Assembly: GCA_044370375.1 (NCBI GenBank)
Contig: JBILVQ010000001.1
Span: forward strand, 173 to 64,172
Direction: 5' to 3'
Source of the DNA: Bacteroidia bacterium
Lineage (GTDB): Bacteria > Bacteroidota > Bacteroidia > UBA4408
DNA: 64,000 nt
Of this stretch, positions 8,736 through 25,370 are shown one piece after another. The notes under the pieces were generated by a model. That model did not search any database. It saw nothing but the letters and a program-made list of their open reading frames with translations, and was not told where the DNA came from. Numbering within the stretch: position 1 is the first letter of the stretch; every line of letters starts with the position of its first letter. The position numbers and the translations under genes are program-made.

Positions 8736-8736
8736 T

Positions 8737-9570
8737 CTAGGAAAATAATACACTGGTTCCGTAGCCCGATTTAACTGGGTTTACAATCAATACGGGTATT
8801 TGTGCATCATTGGTAATAATGGTTCTTTCATCTGTTCCGGCAAGAATTTCCGGGAAGCCGCTTTCCTGACTGTTTACAACCGCAATTAAATCAATATCCT
8901 GTGCTGCTGCATAAGCCAACATGTTTTTTACAAAAGCGCCTGAAGCATTAATTTCCTGAACATCAAATTCAATTTTATTGATTCTCAATTCGTTTTTGGC
9001 AAGAGCAACATTGTTGGCAACCGTTTGCTTAAAGTGATCGTCACTGGCCAATGGGTAAAAAATGTGAACCTTGGAACCAAATGATTTAGCCACTGAAATT
9101 GTCATGGATAATTTTTGTTTCGTTTCTTTCGAAAAATCCATCGGAAGCAAAATGTTTTGGTATCCATCCCTGAACTTTCTTTCCTGAACCACAATAAAAG
9201 GAACCTTTGAATTGGTTATTACTTTCACTGCATAACTTCCTAAAATATGCTGCATGCCCTTAACACCGTGGGTTCCCATAACAATCAGTTTTGCATCGTT
9301 CTCTGAGGCAAAATTTCCAATGGCATCAAAAATAGAGCCTACTCTTGTTGCGATGGTCAAATGCACATTCGCAGGAACAGGAAATCTGTTTACTGTATCG
9401 TGAAGGCTTTTTTCCGCATCCTTAATCTCCTTTTCTTTGGCAACAATATTTAGCAATATAATTCTGCTCTCTGATTGTCTGCTCGCTATGCCTATCGCGT
9501 GAGTGAGCGCACAATCTGCTACTGCCGAAAAATCAGTAGGAACAATGATGGTATTTCCAATAGGGTTCAT
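8737..9570 (-). CDS. Universal stress protein, tandem UspA domains
   Basis: It is a paralogue of the 25371..26204 product (MNPIGNTIIVPTDFS vs MKKFLVPTDFS). The ATP-binding-like motif VMGTHGVKGMQHILGSYA is present. The ORF track extends to 9756, but the conserved start is the internal ATG ending at 9570. Confidence 0.75.
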   Translation of the reverse strand: MNPIGNTIIVPTDFSAVADCALTHAIGIASRQSESRIILLNIVAKEKEIKDAEKSLHDTVNRFPVPANVHLTIATRVGSIFDAIGNFASENDAKLIVMGTHGVKGMQHILGSYAVKVITNSKVPFIVVQERKFRDGYQNILLPMDFSKETKQKLSMTISVAKSFGSKVHIFYPLASDDHFKQTVANNVALAKNELRINKIEFDVQEINASGAFVKNMLAYAAAQDIDLIAVVNSQESGFPEILAGTDERTIITNDAQIPVLIVNPVKSGYGTSVLFS

Positions 9571-9723
9571 TTGATGTTTTCCTGTTTTTAGGAACGCAAA
9601 GTAACAAAAAATGATTGTAAAGGGGGCATTAATTTTGATAGTTTTTATCAAAAAATGTTTGTTTTTCGAAGAATTATTGCAACTTTGCGGGTCAACCCAA
9701 AAATGGGTGACTACCCATTGGTT

Positions 9724-9731
9724 TAGTTTTG
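9724..9731 (+). promoter_or_regulatory. Candidate -7 box (TAGTTTTG) for the giant adhesin gene. An inverted repeat ATGGGT-N4-ACCCAT lies nearby (about 9694-9709).
   Basis: A TAnnTTTG match lies about 26 nt upstream of the ATG at 9757. An adjacent 6-bp inverted repeat with a 4-nt spacer sits in the divergent Usp/adhesin intergenic region. These are motif matches only. Confidence 0.25.
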
Positions 9732-9756
9732 TACAATTAATCGAGGATTTCAGCAT

Positions 9757-12700
9757 ATGATGAACTTTAACCTGAAGTGTATTGCCAAAGAAAAATTCAT
9801 TCTCAAGAGTGTAATTTCTTGTTTTTTATGGGCATTTGCTTTTTCTGCCTTGCTTCTCAGCCCCAGAACTGCCGGTGCTACCGTCTTTAACGTGAATACG
9901 CTCGTGGATGGCGGTCCGGGCTCTCTAAGAGCCGCAATCCTGGCAGCCAACAATGATGGAACTGCTACTGCAGGTGCTCCGCATATTATCAATTTAACCG
10001 GACTCTCAGGAACCTTAACGCTTGATTCTGCCCTCAGAAATGTTGAAAACCACATCACTTTTAATGGTCCGTCCAACAACTCCTTAACCATCCGCAGAAA
10101 CCCCACAGCTCCCACTTTTTCTGTTTTCTTAATTAAACCCTTTTCTACACCAAACATCGTTGTTCGGATGAATAATTTAGTGGTTACAGAGGGTAATAGT
10201 TTAACCGGTGGAGGAATTTATGTGGAAGCTTCTACCCTTGTGATTAACCAGTGTCGTATTTTCCGAAACTTCTCAAGCAATGGTCTAGGCGGTGGTATTT
10301 GTATCAATGATGCGGAGGTGGAAATAAACAATTCCACCATTGATAATAACCGGAATTTGGCCGGTTTGGGTGGTGGTATTTACATGAATTTGGGTAGCCT
10401 CCTAATGAATAATTGTACGGTTTTCGGTAATCGTGCCTCCATTGGAGGAGGTATTGATAAGGCCGACATTGGGGCCATGGTCATCAATAACTGTACTTTT
10501 ACCAGAGACACTGCCGATGATATTGGTGGCGGTATTTACAATGATTTTGGTGTATTTGAATTGAACAACTCTATTGTTACTGGAAACCTTGGTGTTAATG
10601 GAGGAAATGATATTGTTCAGGGTGTTTTCTCCACTTTTGGTCATAATCTTATTGGGAATATCAATGGGGTGGTTTTCTTTGGTAACCAAACCGGAAACAC
10701 AGGTGCTGGCGTTAATGCTTCTTTTGTTTTAAATCAAACATTGGCCAACAATTCAGGTCCAACTCCAACCTGTGTGCTGGTGCCTTGCAGTCCGGCTATC
10801 GATAATGGAACCAGCAACGCTTATCCCTTACCCATCTCCTCTGCCACCGACCAAAGAGGAATCGTGCGGAGTAATTTCGGTACTGCTTTTGATATTGGCG
10901 CTGTAGAGTATAGCGGGCCTATTTCTTCCGATGTTTCAAGGTGTGGTCCGGGGCAGGTTACAATTACTGCATTTGCCGGCACCGCCTACCTTTGGTATGA
11001 TGCTCCAGTGGGTGGAAATTTGTTAGGTTTTGGCGCTAACTTTAACGTTAGTATTAACACTAGCACTACCATTTATTTGGCCGATTTTTTCAATGGTTGT
11101 GAATCAACAACAAGAATTCCTGTAAATGTAACCATCCTTCCCCTTGCTCCTCAACCTACAATTACACCCCTTGGGTCAACCACGTTTTGTGATGGAGGTT
11201 CTTTGGTGCTCGAGTCTAGTACTGATCCAACTTATGTGAGTTTTGATTGGGAGCCAGGAACAGGAACAGGACAAACCTTTCAGGTTACATCGGCCGGATC
11301 CTATACGGTTACCGTTGTAGATCTCAATGGATGTTCTGCAACCTCTAATCCGGTGCTTGTTACCGTTAATCCAAACCCTGTCCCGGTAATTACCTCAAGT
11401 GGTTCACTGAATTTGTGCAGTGGAACCACCGTTACTCTTGTTTCAAGCATCCCTTCAGGGAATTTGTGGAATACAGGTGAAACCAATGATAGTTTGGTAG
11501 TGAATACCGCAGGATCCTATTTTACCGTTGTAACCGATGCAAACGGATGCTCCGGCCAATCAAATACTATTGTTATTAATGCCGTTCCCGTTCCTCAAAC
11601 TCCTGTTATTTCTGCAAGCGGCCCTACAACTTTTTGTACCGGTGGTTCCGTTACACTTACTTCTAGCAGTGCAACCGGTAACCTTTGGGGACCCAATGGC
11701 GAAACAACACAAAGTATTGTTGTTAATACTTCCGGAACTTATTTTCTTACCGTTTCTGATGGCAATAATTGTGTTTCCGACACAGCTTTTGTTACCGTGG
11801 TGGTGAATAGTTTGCCCCAAGTTACGGTTAGTCCTGCCGGACCTGTAAACATTTGTCAGGGATCCTCTACGGTATTAACTTCCTCACAGCCTACTGGTAA
11901 TGTATGGTCTGATAATTCAACCGGAAACACGCTGACCGTGAGTGCTGCCGGAAGTTATTTTGTAACTTTTACTGACGGAAATGGTTGTTCTGCTGTTTCC
12001 AATACTGTCGTAGTTAATACAACAAACGCACCTACACCTCCGGTTATAACGGCCAATGGCCCGCTAACTTTCTGCGATGGCAATTCGGTAGTTCTTACAT
12101 CAAATATTGCTGCCAATATCTTGTGGTCAACGGGTGAAACAACGCAGTCCATCACCGTTGTCAATTCAGGCTCTTATACTGTTTCGGTAACCGTTAACGG
12201 GTGTTCCTCCACTTCACAACCTGTAAACGTTACAGTTACCCCGGGCCCTGTTGCAGCAGTAATTACTCCTTCAGGACCAATAACCTTTTGTGCAGGGTCT
12301 TCTGTAACACTTACTTCAGATATTGCCTCAGGCATTTTATGGTCAACCGGTGAAAGTACACAGTCAATTGTGGTTAATGCCTCCGGTTCCTATACCGTTT
12401 CAGTTACCGATGGCTCTGGTTGTACAACCGAATCTTTGCCGGTGGTAGTAACGGTTAATCCTTTGCCTACAACACCGGTCATTACTCCGTCAGGTCCTAC
12501 AACTTTCTGTTTTGGTCAAAGTGTAACGCTCACTTCTAGTTCGGCAACAGGTAATGTTTGGTCAACCGGCGAAACCACGCAATCTATTGTGGTAAGTAGT
12601 ACGCAGGTTATTACGCTAACCGTAACAGATAATAATCTTTGTTCTTCTACTTCCTTGCCTCTATCCATAACGGTCAACCCCCTTCCTCAAACACCAACCA

Positions 12701-15700
12701 TTACCCCCGGAGGTAATCCAACCTTTTGCTTAGGTGAATCAATTACCCTTACGTCAAGTCCTGCGGTTTCCTATTCATGGAGTCCTTCGGTTGGAACTTC
12801 TCAAACCATTACTGTCATTGCCAGTGGTTCCTATACGGTTACCATTACAGATATTAATGGCTGTACTGCTACTTCTAACCCATTTGCAGTTAATGTAAAC
12901 CAACCAACCCCTGTCAGCATTACAGGAGATAATACATTTTGTCAAGGTTCAACGGCTAATCTTTCAGCCAGTGCAGGTGTTTCCTGGCTGTGGTCAACAG
13001 GACAAACAACTCAAAATATCAGCGTTGCTCAAAGTGGTTCCTACACAGTGGAGATAATTGATGCGAACGGTTGTGCCTCTGTTTCTGCTCCCTTTGTTGT
13101 AACTGAATTATTGACGCCTAATCCTGTAGTAAACCCTGCAGGACCTATTCAGGCTTGTTCCAATGAGACGGTGGTTCTTACTTCCTCATTTGGTTCAGGG
13201 AATGTTTGGAGCAATGGTGAAACCACACAATCCATCAATGTTACTAGCTCTGGTAGTTATTTTACCGTAATCACCGGTAACAATGGTTGCATTGGCACCT
13301 CCAATATTGTAGAGGTAATTATTCTTCCGGCACCAACAGCCCCTGTGGTTACATCTTCAGGCTCAACCAATATTTGCACAGGATCATCTGTAACCCTTAC
13401 CTCAGATGTTGCAACAAATATTATTTGGAATACTGGTGAAACTACTCCTTCCATCAATGTTTCCCTTTCAGGTTCATATTTTGTTACTGTTACCGCTCCA
13501 AATGGATGTTCTTCTTCTTCTATTCCTGTAACCGTAGTGGTTGATCTTCCTCCTGCGGCACCCTTATTGCCAAGTCCAGTTTCACAATGTGGCGGCATCG
13601 TCACCCTTGATGCTGGTGCAGTAAATGCCGGTACCAGCTATTTGTGGAGTACTGGGGAAACAACCCAAACCATTGCGGTGAATGTTTCCGGAAATTATTT
13701 CGTTACCCTCACCAACAATTGTGGATCGGTAAATAGTAATACGGCTGTTGTTACTATTTTGCCTGTGCCGGTTGCTCCAATAATAACAGCGAATGGACCT
13801 ACCACTTTTTGTCAGGGTGGATCTGTTGATCTAACTTCTGATGTAGCTAGCAATATTCTGTGGAACAACGGTTCCAATGCTCAAACCATTTCGGTGAACC
13901 AAACAGGAAATTATTTTGTGGTGTTTACCGACGCGAATGGTTGCACTGCTGCCTCTAATGGTATTGATGTTATTGTTGATATTCCATTGCTTGCACCTGT
14001 TTTACCTACCAATATTAGCCAGTGTGGCGGTGGTTTGGTTTTAGATGCCGGTTTCTTTGGTGGTAGCACCAGCTATTTGTGGAGTACAGGAGAAACAACG
14101 CAGACCATTACCGTTAATGCTACAGGAACCTATTCTGTTGAAGTAACCAATGCTTGTGGTACAGTGACTTCAAACCTTGCCGATATCACCATTATTCCTT
14201 TGCCTCCTGCACCCGTAATTACTGCCAACGGGCCAACCACCTTTTGTCAGGGAGGTAGTGTTACACTTACCAGCAGTGCCCTAAGCAATAATCTTTGGAG
14301 CAATGGCGAAACAACACAATCCATTCTTGTTAATCAATCAGGAAATTATTCTGTAACCATTGCCGGTGTTAATGGTTGCTCCAGCAGTTCAAACACCATT
14401 ACCGTGATTGTCGACATCCCTCCGGTTGCTAGCAATTTGGGAGGTCCTTATGTACAATGCGGAGGTACAGTAACCCTTGATGCCGGAAATTCAGGTGGTT
14501 CAACCACCTTTTTATGGTCAAACGGTGAAACCACTCAAACGATAAATGTTGCCACCTCCGGTAATTATCAGGTAGTAATCACAAATTCTTGTGGATCGGT
14601 TACCAGTACAGTAGCTTTAGTTACCATTGAACCAGTACCTCCGGTTCCATCCATCCTTCCTAACGGCCCTGCTACCTTCTGTCAGGGAGGTCAGGTAACC
14701 TTAACCGCCTCTGTTGATCCATCTGTTGTTTCTTTGTTATGGAGTACAAGTGAAACTTCTAACTCCATTTCAGTAGCCACAACAGGCTCCTATACTGTTA
14801 CAGCATTTTCTGCCAATGGCTGCAGTGCAACCTCTTTACCAACAATTGTAACGGTTGATTTTCCTCCTGTTGCTCCAAATTTGGGTGGACCTTATAACCA
14901 ATGTGGAGGAACCGTGTTTTTGGAAGCCAATTTCTTTGGAGGATCCACCACCTATTTATGGAGCAATGGTGAAACAACACAAAGTATACTTGCAGCTACT
15001 TCCGGAAATTATTCGGTTACCATTACCAATTCATGTGGTTCTGTTACCAGTGCTCCTGCAACAGTAATCATTAATCCTTTGCCAACAACCCCATTAATCT
15101 CTGCCTCCGGGCCAACCAATTTTTGTCAAGGAGGCTCTGTTGATTTATCTGTGATTTTTGATCCATCGGTGACGTCTGTTTTATGGAGCACAGGTGAAAC
15201 CACAAACACTATTACGGTTTCAACCGGTGGAAGCTACTTTGTTACCGTTTTTGGTGCCAATAATTGCTCAAGCACCTCGGCACCAATAAATGTTAATGTT
15301 AACACGCTTCCAGTAAGCCCTGTATTGCCTGCAAGTATAAGCCAATGCGGTGGGTCGGTTACCCTCGATGCCGGTCCTGTGCAGCCCGGTAGCGTTTATG
15401 CATGGTCTAATGGCGAATCTACCCAAACAATTACGGTAACCGCCTCAGGAAACTATTTTGTTACCATCATTAATGCTTGTGGAACTGCTCTAAGTAATGT
15501 TTCACAGGTTGAAATTCTACAAGCACCTCCTGCACCTTTAGTAACAGCTTCTGGTCCTACCACTTTCTGTCAAGGAGCTTCTGTTGATTTGACTGCGAGC
15601 TTTTCGAATAACATCATTTGGAATACAGGAGAAACCACCCAAACAATTTCTGTAAGTCAATCAGGAAATTATTTTGTGGTTTTCACTGCTGCGAATGGTT

Positions 15701-18700
15701 GCACTTCATCTTCAATACCGGTTACTGTGATTGTTGATTTACCTCCGGTTGCACCCGTTTTACCACCAAGTATCACTCAATGCGGTGGTTCTGTTACGCT
15801 TGATGCCGGTTCTTTGGGAGGAAGTACTTCTTATTTATGGAGTAATGGGGCTACCACTTCTTCTATTACTGTTACCGTAAGTGGTAGTTATTCTGTTTTG
15901 GTTAGTAATTCATGCGGAACAGTTCTTTCAAATGTTTCTGTTGTTACGATTGAACCATTACCTCCGGCACCGGTTGTTACAGCCGGCGGACCAACAACCT
16001 TTTGCCAGGGAGGATCGGTAACCTTGAACAGTGATGTTTCTACCGGTATTGTATGGAGTAATGGTTCAACCGACCCTTCCATTGTTGTGTCGCAATCAGG
16101 CAACTATTTCGTAAGTGTAATTTCTGCAAATGGTTGTTCAAACTCTTCTAATATTGTTACCGTAATTGTTGATGTTCCGCCAACCGCACCCAATTTAGGC
16201 GGACCTTATGTTCAGTGCGGAGGACAGCTTACACTTTCGGCCGGTATACTGGGTGGAAGTACTACCTATTTATGGTCTAATGGTGAAACTACCCCTTCTA
16301 TTTCTGTAAACCAAAGCGGAAATTACAGTGTGGTGGTTACCAATTCTTGTGGAAGTGTAACAAGTACAACAGCAAATGTTACCATTAACCCCTTGCCAAC
16401 AACTCCAACCATTCAGGCCAACGGACCTATTTCATTTTGTGAGGGAAGCTCGGTTGATCTAACAGCGATTGTTGACAATACAGTGCTGGGATTGACTTGG
16501 AATACGGGAGAAACTACCAACACCATAACCGTTGATACATCAGGAGCCTATTTTGTAACTGTTTTTGGTGCCAACAATTGCAGCGCATCATCACTTCCGG
16601 TTACGGTTTCTGTTGATACGCTACCTACAGCTCCTGATTTAGGTGGACCCATCACCCAATGTGGTGGTACGGTAACCCTTGATGCAGGTTTCTTTGGAGG
16701 ATCTACGAATTATTTGTGGAGCAATGGTGAAACAACGCAAACAATTGTTGTAACCAGCTCTGGTTTATACTCCGTTGCCATCAGCAATAGTTGTGGTTCG
16801 GTCATTAGCAATCCTGTTGTAATTAATATTGAAACGCCTCCTGCTACACCTGTAATAGTGCCGAGCGGACCGCTTGATATTTGTTTAGGTTCTTCGGTTG
16901 ATTTAACCATCAATCCCGACCCAACAGTGGTTGCGGTATTGTGGAGCACAGGTGAAACCACCAACACCATCACCGTAAGTTCTGCTCAAGCAATATTTGT
17001 GACCGTAACCGATGCGAACGGTTGCTCAAGTATTTCTTTAACTGTCAATGTTAATGTGGATAATCCTCCGGTGGCCGTTGTTTTGCCGGATACCGTTGAT
17101 CAATGCGGTGGAACAGTAACCCTGGATGCAGGCTTGATTCCTTCCGGCTCAACCTACTTATGGAGCACCGGTGAAACAACCCAAACCATTGTGGTTGCAA
17201 ATAGTGGGGTTTTTAATGTTTCAGTTATTAATTCTTGTGGAACAGCCCTTAGTAATGATGTAGTAGTAAATTTGTTAGCTGCACCACCAATTCCAACCAT
17301 TACAGCATCTGGTCCTACAACCTTTTGTGTAGGTGATTCTGTGGGATTAACCGTGAGTAACGATCCTTTGGTAACTTCAATTCTTTGGAGTACCGGAGAA
17401 ACTACGCCTACCATTTTTGCTTCCACTCCCAATGCTTTAACCGTAACGGTTTCTTACGCCAACGGATGCAGCAGTTCTTCTTTACCAACCAGCATTGTGG
17501 TCCAAAACCCGCCGGTAGCGGCAGTTCTGGGTGGGCCATTTACTCAATGTGGAGGCACCTTAACACTCGATGCAGGTGTTATTCCTCCAGGAAGTGTTTA
17601 TGCTTGGAGCAATTCTGAAACAACGCAAACCATTACCGTATCGCAATCAGGAAATTATTTTGTTACCATTTCTAATTCCTGTGGTTCGATAACGAGTGAC
17701 ACAGCTGACGTAATCATTAATCAATTACCCAACACGCCTTTAATTACAAGCAGCGGTCCAACTACTTTCTGTATTGGAGACTCGGTGGTTTTGACCAGTA
17801 GTAATCCAAATAATAACCTTTGGTCGAATGGTCTAACAACCCAAAGTATTACGGTAGATACGGCCGGAACCTTCACTGTTTCTGTGGTTTCTGCCCCTGG
17901 ATGTTCAGCAACCTCCAATCCCATTACCATCGTGGTTCAAAATCCACTGGTGGCAGTTAATTTAGGTGGAGATGTTAATGAATGTGGCAGCAATGTAGTA
18001 TTGAATGCCGGCAATCCCGGATCAACATACACATGGACCGACCTTACAGGAAATAACATTTTAAGTCCGACCCAATCAGTAACCCTCGTTAATAGCGGCT
18101 TTGTTTTTGTTGTGGTAGAAAACGCTTGTAATAGTGTAACTTCCGATACCATTACAGTAACCATCAATGCATCCCCTGCCACTCCGGTAATTAATGTAAC
18201 CGGTTCGCTTACTTTCTGTGAAGGCGATTCTGTTTTGTTGGTTGCTTCTGGAGGCTCTTCTGTTGATTTAATAAACAACGGTGACTTTTCTTCCGGTGCC
18301 AATGGTTTCGTGTCTGACTACAATTTTTCTAACAACCTTATACCAGAGGCCACTTATAATGTGGGTCCGGATGCATCGGTTTTCCACCCCTCCTTTAATG
18401 GGTCAGGAAACAATGGAGGAAATTTTCTTGTAGTTAATGGCTCTTCCACACCGGGACAATCGGTATGGTCGCAAACCGTGAGTGTGCAACCAGGTGCATC
18501 TTATGATATTGGTCTTTTCCTCTCTTCTATGGTGGCCGGAAATCCTGGCGAGATTCAATTGAGAGTAGACGGAATAGACGTAGGTGCGGTGATGAACTGC
18601 CCTGGATCTATCAACACATGGGTTCCCTTTACACAAACGTGGACTGCAGGAGTTTCGCCTTTTGCCAATTTATCATTGCATAGTATGAGTTCAACTTCAG

Positions 18701-20964
18701 GTGGAAATGATTTTGGAGTTGACGATATCACCATGAATTGTACCAATTGTTCCTCTGTTGCCAACTATGTTTGGAGCAATGGTGCAACAGGTGATTCATT
18801 GGTTGTTGATAGTTCAGGCACTTATACAGTTTCCATTGTCAATGGCTTGAACTGTTCTGCAACTTCACAACCCGTTACCGTGATTGTGAATTTGTTGCCA
18901 CAAATTCCTGCATTTGCCGATACTACTCAATGTGGAGGTAGCATCACTTTGGATGCCGGAAATCCAGGTGCTACTTATCTTTGGTCGAATGGTCAAACTA
19001 CACAAACCATTGTGGTTTCATCAACTTCCGCCAATGTTTTTGTAGCCATTACCAACTCCTGCGGTACCGTTTCCTCTGATACGGTAGATGTAACCATTAA
19101 CGCTATTCCGGTGTTTGACCTTGGTGGTCCATACGATATTTGTAATGGTGGCTCGGTTACGCTTGATCCGGGAATTGCTGGTTTAACGTATGATTGGAGT
19201 ACTTCAGAAACCACACAAAGCATCTCTGTTAGCACAGCAGGTAATGTGATTCTGACTGTTACAAATCCTTTGACCGGATGTAACTTTACCGATACCGCGG
19301 TTGTTAACGTTAACTTCCCTCCGGTTGTAAATTTAGGACCAGACATTGTACAGTGTGGAGGAACGGTAATTTTAGATGCACAGAACCCGGGCTCAACTTA
19401 TTTGTGGTCAAGTGGCGAAACAACACAAACCCTTTCCTTGACAGGTACTCAGGTAACCACTGTTTCGGTTACTGTTACCAATACATGCGGAACTACTGTT
19501 AGTTTGCCAATTACGGTAGATATTCGCCCTGCACCAAGTCCTGCCTTTATTGTGGCCGGTGGTCCAACCACTCTTTGTGAAGGAGATTCTGTAGAATTAT
19601 TCGCCAGCCCCGGAACATCCTATATATGGGCACCGGGTGGTGAAACAACCAATTCCATCACGGTTGGTGTTTCGGGCACTTATGGAGTAACGGTTATTGA
19701 TGGAAATGGTTGTCCGTCCATCGCACCTGCTGTAGTGGTGGATGTATTGCCATTGCCTGGTGTACCAGCTATTATTACTGCAAACGGACCAACGACCTTT
19801 TGCCTTGGCGGTTCCGTTACTTTGAGTTCAGCTAGCTTAACAGGAAATACCTGGTTGCCATCCGGTAATACGAATAATGCCATAACCGTATTCAATGGCG
19901 GCCCTGTAGTATTAGTTGTTACTGCACCAAATGGATGTTCTTCGGTTTCTGATACGGTGGATGTAATTGTAAATTTCCCACCTCCAGCCTTTGTTGTTGT
20001 TAATGGAAATCCTAATCTGTGTTTAGGGGATTCATTGGTGTTAACAGCAAACAATGGTCAAGGCTTTACCTACTTATGGTCACCCGGTGGACAAACAAGC
20101 CCGTCCATTTCGGTTGCTGCGGCTGGAGACTACACTGTAACAGTAACTGATACGAATAATTGTTCTTCTACCTCCATTGCAACCAATGTGGTTTCGATAA
20201 CTCCACCTCCTATTCCGGTAATTAGTTCCTCAGGGGCTTTGGCTTGCTTTACAGGAAGTGTAACACTTTCTGCAAGTGGTCAGGGCGACTTTGTTTGGTC
20301 TAACGGTCTTGTTGGGTCAGTGGTAGAGGTAAATCAACCGGGAGATTATTTTGTGACGGTAACCAACACATTCTCTTGTTCATCGGTATCAGATACCATA
20401 ACCCTAGTTCCTTCCAAGGATATGAGTGTTACATTGAGTAGTCCGGTTTATGAAAGCAACCAGAAAAATATTCGTTGTTTCGAAGGATCGGATGGGGTAA
20501 TTGAAGCCAAAGTAGAAGGTGGTTACGAACCATTTACCTACGCTTGGTCTAATGGAGCCACCACAGCCAAAATTGAAGGGGTTAAAGGAGGGAATATTGA
20601 TTACGTGGTAACGGTAACAGATGCCTATGGTTGTACAGCAACCCAAACTATTCAACTTACCACTCCGGAAAATCCTTTGGAACAGACGCCTCAGGGCTTC
20701 TCGCCTGATGGTAATGGAGTTAACGATAAGTTTATCATTCCAGGAATTGAGTCTTATTCAAATGTAAAGATTTGGATTTATAATCGTTGGGGCAATGAAC
20801 TGTATCAGGTAAATGGAACTTACAATACAGAAAATGCTTGGGATGGAACCGGACCCAACGGAAGCCAGTTACCTGATGGAACTTACTTCATGGTACTTGA
20901 AGCAGAATCACCTGAATGTGGCACCATTGCTACACAACGTTACATTGAACTTAGAAGGAAATAA
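9757..20964 (+). CDS. Giant (3735 aa) SprB-like cell-surface adhesin, a T9SS type-B cargo. Its order of parts is signal peptide, parallel beta-helix domain, about 41 Ig-like repeats (one carrying a nested CBM4/9-like domain), a SprB repeat, and a CHU_C/type-B C-terminal domain.
   Basis: The signal peptide is MMNFNLKCIAKEKFILKSVISCFLWAFAFSALLL. Aa ~40-385 carry GGGIY/GGGIC beta-helix repeats ending in DQRGIVR...DIGAVEY. Aa ~385-3560 carry repeats of about 80 aa with two conserved Cys (..GPTTFCQGGSV.LTS...LWSNGETTQSI.V..SGNY.V.....NGCSS.S). The SprB-repeat motif is CFEGSDGVIEAKVEGGYEPFTYAWSNGA. The C-terminus (FSPDGNGVNDKFIIPG...YNRWGNELYQ...DGTYFMV) matches the gliding-motility-associated C-terminal domain / T9SS type-B CTD. 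Confidence 0.85.
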   Translation: MMNFNLKCIAKEKFILKSVISCFLWAFAFSALLLSPRTAGATVFNVNTLVDGGPGSLRAAILAANNDGTATAGAPHIINLTGLSGTLTLDSALRNVENHITFNGPSNNSLTIRRNPTAPTFSVFLIKPFSTPNIVVRMNNLVVTEGNSLTGGGIYVEASTLVINQCRIFRNFSSNGLGGGICINDAEVEINNSTIDNNRNLAGLGGGIYMNLGSLLMNNCTVFGNRASIGGGIDKADIGAMVINNCTFTRDTADDIGGGIYNDFGVFELNNSIVTGNLGVNGGNDIVQGVFSTFGHNLIGNINGVVFFGNQTGNTGAGVNASFVLNQTLANNSGPTPTCVLVPCSPAIDNGTSNAYPLPISSATDQRGIVRSNFGTAFDIGAVEYSGPISSDVSRCGPGQVTITAFAGTAYLWYDAPVGGNLLGFGANFNVSINTSTTIYLADFFNGCESTTRIPVNVTILPLAPQPTITPLGSTTFCDGGSLVLESSTDPTYVSFDWEPGTGTGQTFQVTSAGSYTVTVVDLNGCSATSNPVLVTVNPNPVPVITSSGSLNLCSGTTVTLVSSIPSGNLWNTGETNDSLVVNTAGSYFTVVTDANGCSGQSNTIVINAVPVPQTPVISASGPTTFCTGGSVTLTSSSATGNLWGPNGETTQSIVVNTSGTYFLTVSDGNNCVSDTAFVTVVVNSLPQVTVSPAGPVNICQGSSTVLTSSQPTGNVWSDNSTGNTLTVSAAGSYFVTFTDGNGCSAVSNTVVVNTTNAPTPPVITANGPLTFCDGNSVVLTSNIAANILWSTGETTQSITVVNSGSYTVSVTVNGCSSTSQPVNVTVTPGPVAAVITPSGPITFCAGSSVTLTSDIASGILWSTGESTQSIVVNASGSYTVSVTDGSGCTTESLPVVVTVNPLPTTPVITPSGPTTFCFGQSVTLTSSSATGNVWSTGETTQSIVVSSTQVITLTVTDNNLCSSTSLPLSITVNPLPQTPTITPGGNPTFCLGESITLTSSPAVSYSWSPSVGTSQTITVIASGSYTVTITDINGCTATSNPFAVNVNQPTPVSITGDNTFCQGSTANLSASAGVSWLWSTGQTTQNISVAQSGSYTVEIIDANGCASVSAPFVVTELLTPNPVVNPAGPIQACSNETVVLTSSFGSGNVWSNGETTQSINVTSSGSYFTVITGNNGCIGTSNIVEVIILPAPTAPVVTSSGSTNICTGSSVTLTSDVATNIIWNTGETTPSINVSLSGSYFVTVTAPNGCSSSSIPVTVVVDLPPAAPLLPSPVSQCGGIVTLDAGAVNAGTSYLWSTGETTQTIAVNVSGNYFVTLTNNCGSVNSNTAVVTILPVPVAPIITANGPTTFCQGGSVDLTSDVASNILWNNGSNAQTISVNQTGNYFVVFTDANGCTAASNGIDVIVDIPLLAPVLPTNISQCGGGLVLDAGFFGGSTSYLWSTGETTQTITVNATGTYSVEVTNACGTVTSNLADITIIPLPPAPVITANGPTTFCQGGSVTLTSSALSNNLWSNGETTQSILVNQSGNYSVTIAGVNGCSSSSNTITVIVDIPPVASNLGGPYVQCGGTVTLDAGNSGGSTTFLWSNGETTQTINVATSGNYQVVITNSCGSVTSTVALVTIEPVPPVPSILPNGPATFCQGGQVTLTASVDPSVVSLLWSTSETSNSISVATTGSYTVTAFSANGCSATSLPTIVTVDFPPVAPNLGGPYNQCGGTVFLEANFFGGSTTYLWSNGETTQSILAATSGNYSVTITNSCGSVTSAPATVIINPLPTTPLISASGPTNFCQGGSVDLSVIFDPSVTSVLWSTGETTNTITVSTGGSYFVTVFGANNCSSTSAPINVNVNTLPVSPVLPASISQCGGSVTLDAGPVQPGSVYAWSNGESTQTITVTASGNYFVTIINACGTALSNVSQVEILQAPPAPLVTASGPTTFCQGASVDLTASFSNNIIWNTGETTQTISVSQSGNYFVVFTAANGCTSSSIPVTVIVDLPPVAPVLPPSITQCGGSVTLDAGSLGGSTSYLWSNGATTSSITVTVSGSYSVLVSNSCGTVLSNVSVVTIEPLPPAPVVTAGGPTTFCQGGSVTLNSDVSTGIVWSNGSTDPSIVVSQSGNYFVSVISANGCSNSSNIVTVIVDVPPTAPNLGGPYVQCGGQLTLSAGILGGSTTYLWSNGETTPSISVNQSGNYSVVVTNSCGSVTSTTANVTINPLPTTPTIQANGPISFCEGSSVDLTAIVDNTVLGLTWNTGETTNTITVDTSGAYFVTVFGANNCSASSLPVTVSVDTLPTAPDLGGPITQCGGTVTLDAGFFGGSTNYLWSNGETTQTIVVTSSGLYSVAISNSCGSVISNPVVINIETPPATPVIVPSGPLDICLGSSVDLTINPDPTVVAVLWSTGETTNTITVSSAQAIFVTVTDANGCSSISLTVNVNVDNPPVAVVLPDTVDQCGGTVTLDAGLIPSGSTYLWSTGETTQTIVVANSGVFNVSVINSCGTALSNDVVVNLLAAPPIPTITASGPTTFCVGDSVGLTVSNDPLVTSILWSTGETTPTIFASTPNALTVTVSYANGCSSSSLPTSIVVQNPPVAAVLGGPFTQCGGTLTLDAGVIPPGSVYAWSNSETTQTITVSQSGNYFVTISNSCGSITSDTADVIINQLPNTPLITSSGPTTFCIGDSVVLTSSNPNNNLWSNGLTTQSITVDTAGTFTVSVVSAPGCSATSNPITIVVQNPLVAVNLGGDVNECGSNVVLNAGNPGSTYTWTDLTGNNILSPTQSVTLVNSGFVFVVVENACNSVTSDTITVTINASPATPVINVTGSLTFCEGDSVLLVASGGSSVDLINNGDFSSGANGFVSDYNFSNNLIPEATYNVGPDASVFHPSFNGSGNNGGNFLVVNGSSTPGQSVWSQTVSVQPGASYDIGLFLSSMVAGNPGEIQLRVDGIDVGAVMNCPGSINTWVPFTQTWTAGVSPFANLSLHSMSSTSGGNDFGVDDITMNCTNCSSVANYVWSNGATGDSLVVDSSGTYTVSIVNGLNCSATSQPVTVIVNLLPQIPAFADTTQCGGSITLDAGNPGATYLWSNGQTTQTIVVSSTSANVFVAITNSCGTVSSDTVDVTINAIPVFDLGGPYDICNGGSVTLDPGIAGLTYDWSTSETTQSISVSTAGNVILTVTNPLTGCNFTDTAVVNVNFPPVVNLGPDIVQCGGTVILDAQNPGSTYLWSSGETTQTLSLTGTQVTTVSVTVTNTCGTTVSLPITVDIRPAPSPAFIVAGGPTTLCEGDSVELFASPGTSYIWAPGGETTNSITVGVSGTYGVTVIDGNGCPSIAPAVVVDVLPLPGVPAIITANGPTTFCLGGSVTLSSASLTGNTWLPSGNTNNAITVFNGGPVVLVVTAPNGCSSVSDTVDVIVNFPPPAFVVVNGNPNLCLGDSLVLTANNGQGFTYLWSPGGQTSPSISVAAAGDYTVTVTDTNNCSSTSIATNVVSITPPPIPVISSSGALACFTGSVTLSASGQGDFVWSNGLVGSVVEVNQPGDYFVTVTNTFSCSSVSDTITLVPSKDMSVTLSSPVYESNQKNIRCFEGSDGVIEAKVEGGYEPFTYAWSNGATTAKIEGVKGGNIDYVVTVTDAYGCTATQTIQLTTPENPLEQTPQGFSPDGNGVNDKFIIPGIESYSNVKIWIYNRWGNELYQVNGTYNTENAWDGTGPNGSQLPDGTYFMVLEAESPECGTIATQRYIELRRK
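10909..20440 (+). repeat. In-frame tandem array of about 41 Ig-like repeats of about 80 aa (~240 bp) inside the adhesin gene. In the central roughly 13 pairs, two repeat sub-types alternate as A/B, giving a ~480-bp super-repeat.
   Basis: The protein-level periodicity can be read directly. Type A repeats read GPTTFCQGGSV.LTSD....I.WNTGETT..I.V..SGNYFV.....NGC.SSS. Type B repeats read QCGG.VTLDAG..GGST.YLWSNGETTQTI.V...GNY.V...NSCG.V.S. The DNA copies are diverged, at roughly 65-75% identity by eye, and no exact long DNA repeats were seen. Confidence 0.75.
18262..18750 (+). other. CBM4/9-like (galactose-binding-like jelly-roll) domain nested inside an Ig-like repeat of the adhesin
   Basis: A segment of about 163 aa (VDLINNGDFSSGANGF...SVWSQTVSVQPGASYDIGLF...NDFGVDDITMNC) interrupts a repeat between its first half (TFCEGDSVLLVASGG) and its second half (SSVANYVWSNGATGDSLVV...NCSATS). 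The NGDF...W...G.Y......DD..M/L pattern resembles CBM_4_9. Confidence 0.5.
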
Positions 20965-20969
20965 TCAGA

Positions 20970-21932
20970 ATGAAAAGGAAAATGCAGCAACACAATAAAT
21001 ATCTTTTCATGAAAAGGATAGCAGCACTAATTGCAGTCTTGATGCTTACCTCAGGGGCACTAAAAGCTCAGCAGGATATCATGATAAGCCAATATATGTT
21101 TAACGGATTATTTTTGAATCCTGCCTATGCCGGTTCGCATAAATACATGGGAGCAAGTTTGCTTCACAGGCGTCAGTGGGTAAATTTCCCTGGGGCACCT
21201 GTTACCAGTATTTTTGCAATCGACGGGCCTTTGGCCAACAGAAGAATGGGCTGGGGAATGATGGTGGCAACAGAGAAAATTGGAGCTACCAGCCAAACAG
21301 ATTTATTTGGTAATTATTCCTACAACATTCCATTAGCGAAAGGAAAACTTTCTTTTGGTTTAAGAGCAGGAGGGTCATTGGTAACCGCAAATCTGGCACA
21401 GTTAAAAACTGTAGAAAGCGGAGATGAGGCTTTTGCAACCAATATCCGTTCAAAGTTCCTTCCCAAATTTGGTGCAGGGGTTTATTATTATGCTAAGATG
21501 TTCTATGCAGGTATCTCTGTTCCAACGCTGGTTGCTTACGACTCAAAAAGGGACTTTAGTTTCGATGTTTCAAAATCTTCAAGTGTAAGAAATCATACCT
21601 TCTTAACAGCGGGCTATGTATTTGTCGTTAATCCAATGGTTAAACTAAAGCCTTCGGTTTTGGTGAAATATCAGCCGGCAGCTCCTGTACAGGCAGATAT
21701 TAACCTTAATGTTTTGTTAAACGATGTACTATGGCTGGGAAGTTCTTTCCGCACAGGTGAATCTATTGTAGGTTTGGTTGAATATCAAATTAATCCAATG
21801 TTCAGAGTGGGTTATGCCTTTGATTACAACCTAACACAAATTCGTAAATTCTCAGCAGGTTCACACGAAATTATGCTTGGAATTGATTTTGGCCGTGATA
21901 TTCTGAAAACCAAGAACCCTCGATTCTTTTAA
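20970..21932 (+). CDS. Type IX secretion system membrane protein, PorP/SprF family
   Basis: The signal peptide is followed by the family N-terminal signature QQDIMISQYMFNGLFLNPAYAG. The length of about 300 aa is typical of an outer-membrane beta-barrel. It lies immediately downstream of a type-B CTD cargo gene (6-nt gap). The true start is probably the internal Met at about 21009 (MKRIAALIAVLML...). Confidence 0.8.
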   Translation: MKRKMQQHNKYLFMKRIAALIAVLMLTSGALKAQQDIMISQYMFNGLFLNPAYAGSHKYMGASLLHRRQWVNFPGAPVTSIFAIDGPLANRRMGWGMMVATEKIGATSQTDLFGNYSYNIPLAKGKLSFGLRAGGSLVTANLAQLKTVESGDEAFATNIRSKFLPKFGAGVYYYAKMFYAGISVPTLVAYDSKRDFSFDVSKSSSVRNHTFLTAGYVFVVNPMVKLKPSVLVKYQPAAPVQADINLNVLLNDVLWLGSSFRTGESIVGLVEYQINPMFRVGYAFDYNLTQIRKFSAGSHEIMLGIDFGRDILKTKNPRFF

Positions 21933-21935
21933 TTT

Positions 21936-23861
21936 TTGAAATCTGACATGAAATTCCCACTTCCAAGAACGATTCTCCTTGCTGCCATTCTCCTGCTTTC
22001 TTTGTCAGGATGTACCAGATACTACATTAGCCAGGGGAACAAAAATTTTGATGCACTTGCTTATTATAAAGCTGCACAGTTTTACGAAAAAGCTGTGGCC
22101 AAAAAGCAAGACCCGAAAGCATTAACCAATCTTGCCGTTTGCTATCGTTCTATGAACGAATACAAAAAAGCAGAGGATACTTATGCAAAAGTTGTTGCAC
22201 TTCCGGGTGTAGATCCAATGCATACTTTGTCGTACGCAAAGGTTTTAATGAACAATGGAAAAACCGAACAAGCTGCTGAACAGTTAAAGAATTATCTAAA
22301 GCTAAAGCCAACTGACTCCAGTGCTGAAATGCTTTTACGTTCTTTAAATGAGCGCAATACCATGATGAAGGATACCACCCAATGGTCTTTGACCGCGGTA
22401 AAAATGGGAGGTATTCAAGAGTTTTTTAGTCCGGTTAGATATAAGGATGGTTATATTTTTTCTGCCACCGGTGAGGCTTCTAAAACAGAGGCCAATCCAT
22501 CAACAGGAAAAGGTTATTACGATTTGTATTTTGTAAAGCAAGATGCTTCAGGCAATTTTGGTACGCCTGCTAAATTAGAAGGTCATATCAATGGTAAATT
22601 ACATGATGGGATGGCTGCTGTGGTACCGGGAGGAAATGAACTTTATTATACCACCACCAATGATGAAGGACTGAACGAGGAGGAACGATACGAAAAAGTA
22701 ATCGGTTTAAAAATTCAGAAGGATGTAATGAAAGACGGAAAGTGGGAGAAAGCCGAAGATTTTCCGCACAACAGCGGGGATTATTCTACAGGACATCCTA
22801 CACTCACCTATGATGGTAAAACCATGTATTTTATTTCGGATAAACCGGGAGGTAGCGGAGGCACTGATATATATTCTACCAAATTGGTAAATGGTGCATG
22901 GTCTGCTCCTGAAAATTTGGGTTCATTGATTAATACTCCTGAAAATGAAATGTTTCCGTATGTGGACAGTTTAGGCAATTTGTATTTTTCAAGTTTCGGT
23001 CATAAAACCATGGGCGGCTTGGATGTATTTGTTTGCAAAAACGAAATGGGAAAACTCTCTCCACCGGTGAACCTTAACTATCCATTGAACTCAAGTAAGG
23101 ATGACTTTAGTTTCTCTATTGACAATAACGGAACCCGTGGTTTAGTTTCTTCCAATCGTTCAGGAACAGATAAAATTTATTCCTTTACAAAGAACCCGGC
23201 AAAAATTGAAGTAACCGGAACCGTAAGCAGCAAAGTTGATGGCAAGCCATTGGCCAATGTTAAAATTGATATTTCAGATAAAATGGGTGGTTCAACGGTA
23301 ACGGTTTATACCGATGAAGCAGGGAATTACAAGGCTGTTTTGGAGTCGGAAAAGGAATTTGAATTTTCAGTATCCAAAGACGGATATTTTGCGCAAACTG
23401 CAACGGTAAGTACAAAAGGAAAGAAAGACAACCTAAAACAGGATTTTGTGTTGGATGAGTTGGTAATTGATAAGCCTGTGGTAATTGACCAAAGCGAAGA
23501 TCCCAACAAACCAAGACCTATTTTCTTTGACTTCGATAAATGGGATATCAGGCCTGATGCTTACGAAAATCTGAACAAATTAGTGAAGCTGTTGAAGGAT
23601 AATCCGAAGGTTAATATTGAACTAAGTTCGCACACCGATTGTAGAGGAACTGATTCTTACAATCAGAAACTATCTGAAAGAAGAGCCAAGTCAACTGCCA
23701 AATATCTTACGGAAAAGGGTATCAAATCCAAGAGAATCAAGTCAAAAGGTTACGGTGAAAGAAAATTGGTGAATAAATGTGCTGATGGAGTACCGTGTTC
23801 AACTGAGGAGCATCAGGAAAACAGAAGAACCGAATTCAAAGTAATCAGTGTTGACAAATAA
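21936..23861 (+). CDS. OmpA-family lipoprotein with TPR repeats, a TolB-like beta-propeller region and a C-terminal OmpA/MotB peptidoglycan-binding domain
   Basis: A lipobox is present (LLLSLSGC). The N-terminal third carries TPR-like repeats. The middle carries WD40/TolB-like repeats (MYFISDKPGGSGGTDIYS..., LYFSSFGHKTMGGLDVF). The OmpA-domain C-terminus reads FDFDKWDIRPDAYENLNKLVKLL...ELSSHTDCRGTDSYNQKLSERRAKSTAKYL. Confidence 0.8.
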   Translation: MKSDMKFPLPRTILLAAILLLSLSGCTRYYISQGNKNFDALAYYKAAQFYEKAVAKKQDPKALTNLAVCYRSMNEYKKAEDTYAKVVALPGVDPMHTLSYAKVLMNNGKTEQAAEQLKNYLKLKPTDSSAEMLLRSLNERNTMMKDTTQWSLTAVKMGGIQEFFSPVRYKDGYIFSATGEASKTEANPSTGKGYYDLYFVKQDASGNFGTPAKLEGHINGKLHDGMAAVVPGGNELYYTTTNDEGLNEEERYEKVIGLKIQKDVMKDGKWEKAEDFPHNSGDYSTGHPTLTYDGKTMYFISDKPGGSGGTDIYSTKLVNGAWSAPENLGSLINTPENEMFPYVDSLGNLYFSSFGHKTMGGLDVFVCKNEMGKLSPPVNLNYPLNSSKDDFSFSIDNNGTRGLVSSNRSGTDKIYSFTKNPAKIEVTGTVSSKVDGKPLANVKIDISDKMGGSTVTVYTDEAGNYKAVLESEKEFEFSVSKDGYFAQTATVSTKGKKDNLKQDFVLDELVIDKPVVIDQSEDPNKPRPIFFDFDKWDIRPDAYENLNKLVKLLKDNPKVNIELSSHTDCRGTDSYNQKLSERRAKSTAKYLTEKGIKSKRIKSKGYGERKLVNKCADGVPCSTEEHQENRRTEFKVISVDK

Positions 23862-23982: not shown

Positions 23983-24699
23983 ATGATAAAAAGGAAAGAT
24001 CAAGCACATGTGGATTGTCATCATTGTGACTCAAGATTCAAATCTGTTTTTTGCGACCTCGCCTCTGAGGAATTGGAGGCCTTAAACAACCATAAATCTT
24101 GTTCCCAGATTAAAAAAGGACAGGTGATTTTTAATGAAGGATTTCACCCGCATGGAATTTATTGCGTTAACAGTGGGAAAATCAAGGTTTCTCAAATGGG
24201 CGATGCAGGTCGCGAGCACATTGTACGTCTTGCAAAGGATGGCGATATTTTAGGTTATCGTGCGGTTTTGAGTGGTGATAAATATTCTTGTTCAGCAATT
24301 GCTTTAGATGACTGTAATATTTGTTTTGTGCCCAAGGAAGTATTTTTGGGTATGGTACAAAGAGATGTTTCGCTTTCAATGAGCATGATGCGATTGCTCT
24401 CCGACAACCTAAAGCAAGCCGAAACGAGAATAACCGAAATGGCCCAGAAACCGGTGCGTGAAAGATTGGCTGAATCCATATTGTTCCTGAAAGAAACTTA
24501 TGGCTATGAAACCGGTACCAACATTCTTAATGTAACCATGTCGCGGGAGGAGCTTGCCAACATGACAGGAACGGCAACCGAAACCGCCATACGATTACTT
24601 TCGGAGTTAAAATCCGATGGAATTATTGAGCTAACAGGAAAGAAAATTGGCATATTAGACCATTCTAAACTGGTTAAAACCGCCAACTTGTTTGATTAG
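23983..24699 (+). CDS. Crp/Fnr-family transcriptional regulator with an N-terminal Cys cluster (FNR-like)
   Basis: A cNMP-binding-like beta-roll is present in the middle. The C-terminal HTH is REELANMTGTATETAIRLLSELKSDGII. The N-terminus carries Cys at positions 12, 15, 24 and 40 (VDCHHCDSRFKSVFC...HKSC), reminiscent of an FNR Fe-S ligand set. Confidence 0.8.
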   Translation: MIKRKDQAHVDCHHCDSRFKSVFCDLASEELEALNNHKSCSQIKKGQVIFNEGFHPHGIYCVNSGKIKVSQMGDAGREHIVRLAKDGDILGYRAVLSGDKYSCSAIALDDCNICFVPKEVFLGMVQRDVSLSMSMMRLLSDNLKQAETRITEMAQKPVRERLAESILFLKETYGYETGTNILNVTMSREELANMTGTATETAIRLLSELKSDGIIELTGKKIGILDHSKLVKTANLFD

Positions 24700-24794
24700 C
24701 ACTGTTTAACATGATAAAAATCATGTTTTCTATTGACCCTTATCATTCTAATCATTTATAATTGAAGCTAAGTTTGCTGAGATTAATTCAGTAA

Positions 24795-25355
24795 ATGCCT
24801 ACCGATTATTTGTTTCATACCACCCAATTAAAACCTGATGGATTAACCCTGTATCAGGCCGAACGCCATCATGCAGAAACCCGTGTAGTGTTAAACCTAT
24901 TGGGAAAAACCATGGAGCGCTTGGTTACAACTGAGAATTTGCCCGTCCTTTGGCCTGAATTATATGATCGATTTTTAATACTGGCCGATACCATTGAAAA
25001 CAACCAAAGAAAGGAGGAAACTATTTTCTTTCCCTTTGTGGCGAAAATGCTTTCTATTCTTCAAGGCAATAAATCAGTTGATTTTCCGCTGCAAACAATG
25101 GTTAAAAAACCCATTGATCTAATGAGAAAGGAACATGAAAGGGTTAGAAAAATTATGGATGAAATAAGAGACCTTACAGATAATTATTCTTTGAAATCAG
25201 TCAGTTCTTTCGAAGGGAAACTATGTCTTTCAGAATTATTCGTCCTTCATCAAAACCTCGAAAAGCATTTTTACCTTGAAGAAAACATTCTGTTTGAACA
25301 AGTTTTTTTTCTCGAAAATAAATTAAACGAAGCTAATCCGGGTTTTTTTCGATAA
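24795..25355 (+). CDS. Hemerythrin-like (HHE cation-binding) domain protein
   Basis: H/E spacing typical of hemerythrin-like domains is seen in MRKEHERVRKIMDEIRDL and HQNLEKHFYLEENILFEQV (H....E.H...EE..LF), plus an N-terminal ERHHAE. This is a motif-level call only. Confidence 0.45.
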   Translation: MPTDYLFHTTQLKPDGLTLYQAERHHAETRVVLNLLGKTMERLVTTENLPVLWPELYDRFLILADTIENNQRKEETIFFPFVAKMLSILQGNKSVDFPLQTMVKKPIDLMRKEHERVRKIMDEIRDLTDNYSLKSVSSFEGKLCLSELFVLHQNLEKHFYLEENILFEQVFFLENKLNEANPGFFR

Positions 25356-25370
25356 TATTGTTAAGCCCAA

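Follow-up and report, generated by a model that had tools for sequence, protein, structure and literature searches.

The 64,000-nucleotide (nt) stretch of DNA analysed here (henceforth referred to as the window), from a Bacteroidia bacterium of the lineage UBA4408 (GenBank assembly GCA_044370375.1, contig JBILVQ010000001.1), contains a gene for a 3,735-amino-acid (aa) protein in which small immunoglobulin (Ig)-like modules of two sequence types, A and B, follow one another in strict alternation. We consider it likely that this region is the central stalk of a cell-surface fibre resembling GhpA (grappling hook protein A) and SprB, and that the alternation arose by same-type recombination between modules of two old sub-types. 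The alternation is best explained by history, and the two-type layout is rare but conserved, representing a variant of a known Ig-like type IX secretion system (T9SS) fibre and not a new system. The gene is located as follows:

9757..20964, forward strand: whole gene for the 3,735-aa T9SS type-B cargo, a 'gliding motility-associated C-terminal domain' protein that holds the studied stalk.

To map the stalk, modules were cut at an invariant Trp and two Cys anchors, which gave about 42 Ig-like modules of ~73 aa each (pitch 70-75 aa) and a numbering that agrees with that of the initial annotation, an earlier reading of the same window. Hidden Markov models (HMMs) of types A and B were trained on modules 12-32 only and then applied to all other modules:

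10906..11151, forward strand: module 1 (aa 384-465), a canonical Ig_7 domain with its best Ig_7 stretch at aa 391-462.
11152..13338, forward strand: modules 2-11, type A only (A over B by 24-62 bits).
13339..18168, forward strand: modules 12-33, alternating strictly between A and B as 11 dyads, each 145-148 aa (435-444 nt) long.
18169..18264, forward strand: N-terminal part of module 34, a split type A module (aa 2805-2836; A-profile positions 1-28).
18751..18894, forward strand: C-terminal part of the split module 34 (aa 2999-3046; A-profile positions 23-72).
18895..19104, forward strand: module 35, type B (B 83.7 versus A 37.6 bits).
19105..19317, forward strand: module 36, an A/B hybrid in an A slot (A 48.5 versus B 50.7 bits).
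19318..19539, forward strand: module 37, type B (B 73.0 versus A 36.3 bits), the last module of the range in the initial annotation.
19540..20430, forward strand: modules 38-40, all type A, followed by module 41, which is divergent; assigned from HMM scores and module cutting.

Of the modules outside the training set, all but module 36 are assigned clearly to A or B, with a margin of at least 24 bits. Strict A/B alternation spans modules 12-35 (nt 13339-19104) and is not broken at module 34, since this is an A module split by a nested domain; the probability that 12 A and 12 B modules in random order would alternate strictly is 7.4e-7. In the preceding A-only zone adjacent modules are 46% identical.

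The two types are well separated at the sequence level. Within modules 12-33 the pairwise identity is 52% between A modules and 54% between B modules, compared to 35% between A and B, and the mean identity oscillates accordingly with distance along the chain (odd lags 0.34-0.37, even lags 0.51-0.58). Clustering by the unweighted pair group method with arithmetic mean (UPGMA) gave clean A and B clusters, and the A/B split in neighbour-joining (NJ) trees had bootstrap support of 93/100 with modules from the window only and 92/100 when those of the ortholog L001 (see below) were added. The computed consensus is GPTTFCxGxSVxLTS...LWSTGETTQSI...NGCSS for type A and QCGGxVTLDAG...YLWSNGETTQTI...NSCGSV for type B. 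The two types are nevertheless homologous, with an A versus B hhalign probability of 99.3%. Both are related to the Pfam family Ig_7 (PF19081), which the whole protein matches with 172 bits, although single modules match weakly and mostly fall just under the gathering score of 27.3 bits: at E<=1, 23 of the 24 A modules match (best E 1.8e-6; module 12 scores 26.0 bits), as do 8 of the 14 B modules (best E 0.0017). Overall, these results bear out the initial annotation where it gave motif strings for A and B and expected a phylogeny of the repeats to show A and B clades. Its claim of strict alternation through about modules 12-37 holds for modules 12-35, with the hybrid module 36 in the next A slot and module 37 again being B, and its super-repeat of ~160 aa (~480 bp) has to be shortened to the dyad length listed above, as measured from direct-repeat and Trp spacings.

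A further level of repetition, which the initial annotation did not mention, is that modules 14-21 resemble modules 22-29 in order:

13774..15531, forward strand: first copy of a higher-order unit, modules 14-21, four dyads, 586 aa.
15532..17289, forward strand: second copy, modules 22-29, on the same evidence as the first.

The Trp spacing pattern 72, 73, 72, 73, 75, 73, 75, 73 is seen twice, once in each copy, and the DNA repeat spacing of 1758 nt matches the 8-module unit. Identity at lag 8 was 0.582, compared to a mean of 0.533 when slots were permuted within each type (p=0.001), and exceeded that at lags 4 and 6. The repetition of the stalk thus has three levels: the module, the dyad and the four-dyad unit. 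Finer sub-subtypes are also visible within positions 13774-17289, where A modules occur with or without a 3-residue 'DPS' insertion and B modules with either an 'NLGGPY' or a 'VLPxxIS' lead-in, and their order recurs with the 8-module unit. An apparent linkage of A and B sub-subtypes in the B-to-A register (8 of 10 concordant by eye) was not significant and was confounded by the 8-module duplication, and was dropped.

To place the alternation among related proteins, relatives were collected from a pattern scan of one genome per species, a metagenome scan and an exhaustive search of representative proteins; no orthologs were visible in a word-indexed search for an A-B-A-B segment, whose matches were all fragments of at most 513 aa. 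In the one-genome-per-species scan, 79 of the 80 array loci were single-type runs, and only one, L001, alternates. The single-type loci are mostly A-like (for example, 48 modules in a row in a Fluviicola metagenome-assembled genome (MAG)), and B-like runs occur in Marinifilum, Labilibaculum and Flavobacteriales MAGs. L001, from a freshwater Bacteroidota MAG, is an ortholog of the gene in the window, with the same head, split module with nested domain, tail, and downstream PorP-like and OmpA-like genes. The orthologs are:

P0122: 3,735 aa, 79% identical to the protein in the window and gapless; module string identical.
P0139: 3,162 aa, 56% identical; alternating zone 8 modules shorter.
L001 (the same as P0140): 3,006 aa, 52% identical; alternating zone 6 modules shorter, with a hybrid at the boundary between the A-only and alternating zones.
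L081, L082 and L083: partial orthologs; the module order is preserved in L081 and L082, and L083 is followed by the same genes.

Counted from the first B to the B module with 'TDLTGNN', the alternating zone comprises 21 modules in the window, 21 in P0122, 13 in P0139 and 15 in L001. The differences are always even, and single-module differences among orthologs are confined to the A-only zone. Together with the 8-module period, these even-only differences support the proposal of the initial annotation that the array expanded by two-domain units. Near the end of the alternating region, module 37 of the window and module 28 of L001 are reciprocal best matches (64% identity), and the hybrid module 36 has an ortholog at the same position in P0139 (55% identity) and is absent from L001. 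The hybrid of L001 is its module 10 (positions 7835-8056 of that locus, aa 1050-1123), which scores equally as A and B and has a B-like N-terminal and an A-like C-terminal half, which is what a crossover of a B with an A module would produce.

Comparison with other taxa suggests where the two types come from. The B-like arrays of Marinifilum, Labilibaculum and Flavobacteriales are 38-44% identical to B and 28-37% to A, and the A-type arrays of other taxa are nearer to A than to B; by these cross-taxon identities A and B look like two older sub-types that were interleaved in the lineage of the window. The assignment of B to an older sub-type is based on mean identities and the full-data tree, and bootstrap support for a wider 'B-like' clade with other taxa was low (41/100 for the extended set, and 16/100 for the B modules of the window and L001 inside this larger set).

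The copies themselves are old. Same-type copies share 60-68% nt identity, with third codon positions 35-46% identical and thus near saturation, the longest exact word common to two modules is 20 nt, and Tandem Repeats Finder detected no array in the DNA, all of which indicates that the repeats are ancient and are not being homogenised. Further, no module of the window has a paralog (at most 73% identity) as near to it as its positional ortholog in P0122 (64-86%), and hence there has been no concerted evolution since the split from P0122. The modules diverged individually under purifying selection after ancient duplications. Among near-identical strains, a search for polymorphism in dyad number within the 90%-identity cluster found none, and the 3,598-aa entries in this cluster differ only by the called start codon. 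Compared with P0122, conservation is lowest in the stalk modules (mean 76%; 75% for A and 78% for B, a difference that is not significant) and higher in the head (83%), in the nested domain (87%) and at the C-terminus (91%), which points to the stalk being a spacer.

The remainder of the protein and the genes directly downstream are those of a T9SS-exported surface protein:

9757..9879, forward strand: probable Sec signal peptide (aa 1-41, ...SPRTAGA/TVFNV), read by eye from the sequence.
9880..10905, forward strand: N-terminal non-Ig head, Gly/Asn-rich, ending in a choice-of-anchor Q domain.
20431..20964, forward strand: C-terminal region with one SprB-repeat-like module, the type-B T9SS sorting domain and the stop codon.
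20686-20910, forward strand: the type-B sorting domain (aa 3644-3718).
20970..21932, forward strand: PorP/SprF-family outer-membrane protein (PF11751, 260.9 bits; TIGR03519, 269.1 bits versus a cutoff of 90.55).
21936..23861, forward strand: PorE-like protein with TPR, PD40, CarboxypepD_reg and OmpA domains (Pfam).

The hydrophobic N-terminus has an AGA/T site, and the start and the mature N-terminus are also kept in L001. The head has no Pfam match, but its end matches the choice-of-anchor Q family (NF041518 choice_anch_Q, 56.1 bits, aa 328-385), and from its repeat pattern it is probably a beta-helix. At the other end, the sorting domain scores 44.1 bits against TIGR04131 (NCBIfam cutoff 35), and CHU_C (PF13585) 69.7 bits in the whole-protein Pfam search (cutoff 27) and 74.6 bits in another search. 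Directly before the sorting domain lies a single SprB-repeat match (39.3 bits, aa 3568-3602); in the Pfam search with the whole protein, no SprB repeat (PF13573) scored high enough to be listed. The PorP/SprF gene occupies the same position in L001 and L083; its product is presumably the anchor or shuttle partner of the fibre, and the PorE-like protein presumably its peptidoglycan-binding anchor. The protein is already in databases under the annotation 'gliding motility-associated', and public collections hold the exact 3,735-aa sequence on 10 contigs from several sources. On the opposite strand of the stalk region, no open reading frame of at least 150 aa was found.

The closest known system is that of Aureispira sp. 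CCB-QB1, in which GhpA is a 5,898-aa T9SS substrate with 52 Ig-like repeats, its stem is heptameric, hollow, and carries inter-domain disulfides and O-glycans, and the genes are laid out as ghpA-ghpB(PorP)-ghpC(PorE) (10.1101/2024.01.29.577165). The protein in the window is likewise a giant T9SS substrate with a non-Ig head and a long Ig-like stem with 'NGC ... GPxxC(x)G' motifs, and is followed directly by PorP-like and PorE-like genes in the same order. A profile of the dyad, compared with the Protein Data Bank (PDB), matched the GhpA stem (PDB entries 9flp, 9fls-9fly and 9g8b) with E=4.9e-118, with 16 stretches significant alone, and the type-B C-terminal sorting domains are homologous (E=9.5e-9). 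In parts of the GhpA stem (9flp) the matches recur every 249 residues (for example, 1908, 2157, 2406; 3205, 3454), which suggests a three-module super-repeat there. Unlike GhpA, the protein in the window is shorter (~42 modules instead of 52), has an unrelated head (aa 1-398 showed no similarity to full-length GhpA or any PDB chain), and combines two-type alternation, an 8-module super-repeat and a nested lectin-like domain in its stalk; the heptamer, glycosylation and prey-catching, with binding to the flagella of prey, are described for GhpA. By analogy, the protein in the window probably works like a GhpA/SprB-type surface fibre, but we do not file it as a GhpA ortholog, since the head differs and oligomerisation would follow by analogy only.

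SprB is the gliding-motility adhesin of Flavobacterium johnsoniae, with SprF as its partner, and is described here partly after the GhpA paper. It resembles the protein in the window in being a very large, repetitive surface protein with a CHU_C/TIGR04131 domain and an adjacent PorP/SprF-family gene. The single SprB repeat just before the sorting domain is a further likeness; in contrast to SprB, however, the protein in the window consists mostly of Ig_7-type modules and not of SprB repeats.

The predicted fold of the stalk agrees with this relationship. An AlphaFold2 model of modules A16-B17-A18-B19 (predicted local distance difference test (pLDDT) 94.9, predicted template modelling score (pTM) 0.71) is all-beta with seven to eight strands per module, and in Foldseek it best matches chains of Ig-like domains (probability 1.00), the top eight matches all being GhpA fragments from cryo-electron microscopy. 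The modules had been called Ig-like in the initial annotation, to which the model and these matches lend support. In the DSSP assignment of the model the inter-strand linkers measure 11 residues from A to B and 6 residues from B to A, and type B lacks the first short strand (strand A); within the dyad, the linker residues V68, A74, L77, I140, P144 and P2 are invariant or nearly so. The two Cys residues noted earlier for each module were also recovered by module cutting. The spacings from Cys1 to Trp and from Trp to Cys2 are 17 and 27 in A, and 19 and 25 in B, and the Cys-Cys distance is constant at 44 residues. Of 602 homologous modules, 93% have both Cys; covariation of their presence and absence across these modules is weak (odds ratio 4.5, p=0.046). 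By strand order both Cys lie at the C-terminal end of the module, and their joint shift in B together with the modelled strand topology fits with an intradomain disulfide, as the initial annotation proposed. The disulfides reported in GhpA connect neighbouring Ig-like domains (10.1101/2024.01.29.577165).

Module 34 carries an additional domain in its loop before the Trp strand:

18265..18750, forward strand: nested domain of ~162 aa (aa 2837-2998), inserted in module 34.

It separates aa 2809-2836 (the first 28 profile positions of the module) from aa 2999-3048 (the last 50). The insertion is shared by L001, L081 and P0139, and the domain is present in all orthologs and, as noted above, better conserved in P0122 than the surrounding stalk. 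The copy in the window has no Pfam match and a word-indexed search with it gave no matches, but it belongs to a large family (3,927 representatives at E<=1e-3), a single giant protein often carrying several copies. The family profile matched the galactose-binding lectin 6yf6 (E=4.6e-5), and 11 of 20 family members matched Pfam CBM_4_9 (best E 1.1e-5). A single-sequence AlphaFold2 model of the split module with its insert had a pLDDT of 42.6 and no usable fold. From the family matches, the nested domain is a probable carbohydrate-binding domain distantly related to CBM4_9 and galactose-binding lectins and, as a lectin-like domain nested in a stalk module, it represents a candidate ligand-binding site.

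Taken together, we envisage that the protein would be exported by Sec and then across the outer membrane by the T9SS via its type-B C-terminal domain, and would presumably be retained at the surface by the products of the two genes that directly follow, the PorP/SprF-like and PorE-like proteins. The stalk would be a chain of ~41 small Ig-like beta-sandwich modules with short proline-rich linkers and, at ~4 nm per module, would project the N-terminal head and the lectin-like nested domain ~150 nm from the cell. In this chain, the A ('GPTTFCxGxSVxLT' kind) and B ('LGGPxxQCGGxVTLDAG' kind) modules, which both form single-type arrays in other loci, would be old sub-types of one module that became interleaved. 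Once a first A-B pair existed, the array may have grown and shrunk by unequal recombination or replication slippage between same-type modules. Since the module count would change by an even number (2, 4, 8) in each same-type exchange, the alternation would be self-perpetuating. We infer the recombination mechanism, the surface anchoring and the spacer function in this way, and the dyad, as modelled, would give the fibre a two-module axial period in which long (A-to-B) and short (B-to-A) linkers alternate.

Several observations weigh against this reading. The recombination mechanism is derived solely from the even-number differences, and the placement of gaps by MAFFT inside repeat arrays is arbitrary. 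With no exact words longer than 20 nt in common, the copies as they stand today are too dissimilar in DNA to undergo homologous recombination efficiently, and the events must therefore be old. The two hybrids (module 36 of the window and module 10 of L001) show that exchanges between A and B have occurred, albeit rarely, and modules 35-37 read B-hybrid-B and contain no clean dyad. The linker geometry is taken from DSSP strings only. The PorE-like protein falls below the curated NCBIfam cutoffs (393.6 bits for NF052230, with a cutoff of 600, and 415.9 bits for NF053607). Finally, the head has no similarity to the GhpA hook, so that the function may differ.

We considered whether the alternation was instead selected because it keeps neighbouring modules dissimilar (~35% compared to ~55% identity), which would limit long-lived misfolding between domains, or the swapping of domains, during periplasmic folding of the long all-beta chain ahead of T9SS export. 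In the alternating zone the identity of adjacent modules is indeed 0.36, compared to 0.56 for next-nearest ones, the alternation is kept across orthologs down to 52% identity, and in titin tandems misfolded states are proposed to become less stable when neighbouring Ig-like domains diverge (PMC4660218). However, the same protein holds eleven consecutive A modules (2-12) with a neighbour identity of 46%, and single-type arrays elsewhere are far more alike (mean 75% in Marinifilum, 66% in Fluviicola and 69% in another MAG). The fold therefore seems not to need divergent neighbours, and as same-type recombination explains the persistence of the alternation without selection, we regard selection for dissimilarity as unlikely.

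It also appears improbable that the A-B (or B-A) pair is a structural unit, the heterodimeric-like unit of the initial annotation, in which the two modules would pack against each other or provide a ~8-nm axial repeat for lateral assembly into a rigid, multi-stranded fibre similar to that of GhpA. The heptameric, hollow stem of GhpA, the closest solved homolog, is stabilised by inter-domain contacts, and the 249-aa recurrence of GhpA matches (three modules) indicates that higher-order repeats occur in assembled stems; in the model of the dyads the two kinds of junction are not equivalent and the pTM is high for a four-domain string, and the linker residues are conserved. Yet most homologous fibres, namely the 79 single-type loci, do without a second type, GhpA itself is described as '52 slightly varying' repeats and not as alternating types, and A and B evolve at an equal rate (75% and 78% identity to P0122), which gives no sign of a specially constrained interface. 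An artefact in the assembly of a repetitive gene from metagenome-derived sequence is extremely improbable and was ruled out: even though short-read assembly often breaks or collapses repeat arrays, and L081, L082 and L083 end at contig ends, copies that are 60-68% identical and share no exact word longer than 20 nt are unlikely to confuse an assembler, the identical protein is recorded on 10 contigs from several sources, and the 79% identical ortholog P0122 has the same length and aligns without gaps.

The preferred reading, a stalk of two old sub-types kept in alternation by same-type recombination, can also be set beside other repetitive proteins. Single-type Ig_7 arrays ('Ig-like domain CHU_C associated') share the module family, the two Cys, the Trp motif and the proline-rich linkers with the protein in the window but have one type per run, with L001 alone alternating among the loci scanned. 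Two or more kinds of module in a fixed order are found in the Ig/Fn3 super-repeats of titin, the G5-E alternation of SasG and Aap, and the domain pairs of filamin. These resemble the stalk in having a higher-order periodicity and a duplication unit larger than one domain, but have other folds, organisms and secretion routes, and their partners come from different families and not, as here, from sub-types of one family (35% identity). In periscope proteins a tandem-domain stalk likewise sets the projection distance of a binding domain, and their DNA repeats are nearly identical and vary in number between strains (PMC8201768). In contrast, the copies in the window are 60-68% identical, form no array for Tandem Repeats Finder and show no change in length among close relatives.

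The stalk (positions 11152-20430, aa 466-3558, 3,093 aa) has only 3 Lys and Arg residues compared to 151 Asp and Glu residues, and 26% of the residues in the whole protein are Thr or Ser. Protection from trypsin-like proteases or charge avoidance are our guesses for the near-absence of basic residues. The O-glycosylation motif D-S/T-[AILVMT] occurs at 20 sites compared to ~15 expected, which is no clear enrichment.

The wider neighbourhood of the gene is that of an ordinary chromosome, with genes for an FAD synthetase, a leucine-rich-repeat (LRR) protein, an OmpR-type two-component pair, universal stress proteins (Usp), a Crp-family regulator and a lysyl-tRNA synthetase. The LRR protein is small (positions 6077-6667, 196 aa), and its gene lies between those for the FAD synthetase and the two-component system. 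The region upstream of the fibre gene (positions 6655-9756) encodes an OmpR-type response regulator, a HAMP histidine kinase and, on the minus strand, a tandem-Usp protein, and that downstream of the operon (positions 23983-26204) encodes a Crp-family regulator, a hemerythrin and another Usp; stress- or oxygen-linked regulation is a possible consequence of these flanking regulators. A second T9SS cargo, which combines a type-A Por_Secre_tail with a PKD-like region, is encoded at the start of the window (positions 28-1893) and suggests that a T9SS is present in the genome.

In Bacteroidota, giant T9SS fibres, among them SprB and GhpA, drive gliding, adhesion and predation, and little is known about how their stalks are constructed and evolve. 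The gene described here is a clean natural case, in which two Ig-like sub-types stand in strict alternation within a three-level hierarchy, kept down to an ortholog identity of 52% and changed by even numbers of modules only. We consider it distinctly unlikely that the A/B dyad is a functional structural unit, with alternately long and short junctions and thus a ~8-nm period that would register several chains laterally into a multi-stranded, GhpA-like fibre, the 8-module unit as a longer pitch and the lectin-like domain projecting sideways from the shaft as a second binding site; if true, this would define a new architectural class of T9SS surface fibre. Knowledge of the secretion system itself is unchanged by the finding. 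As a test bed, the gene may help to establish whether the divergence of neighbouring modules matters for the folding of long beta-rich secreted chains, and whether the periodicity of a stalk encodes lateral assembly.

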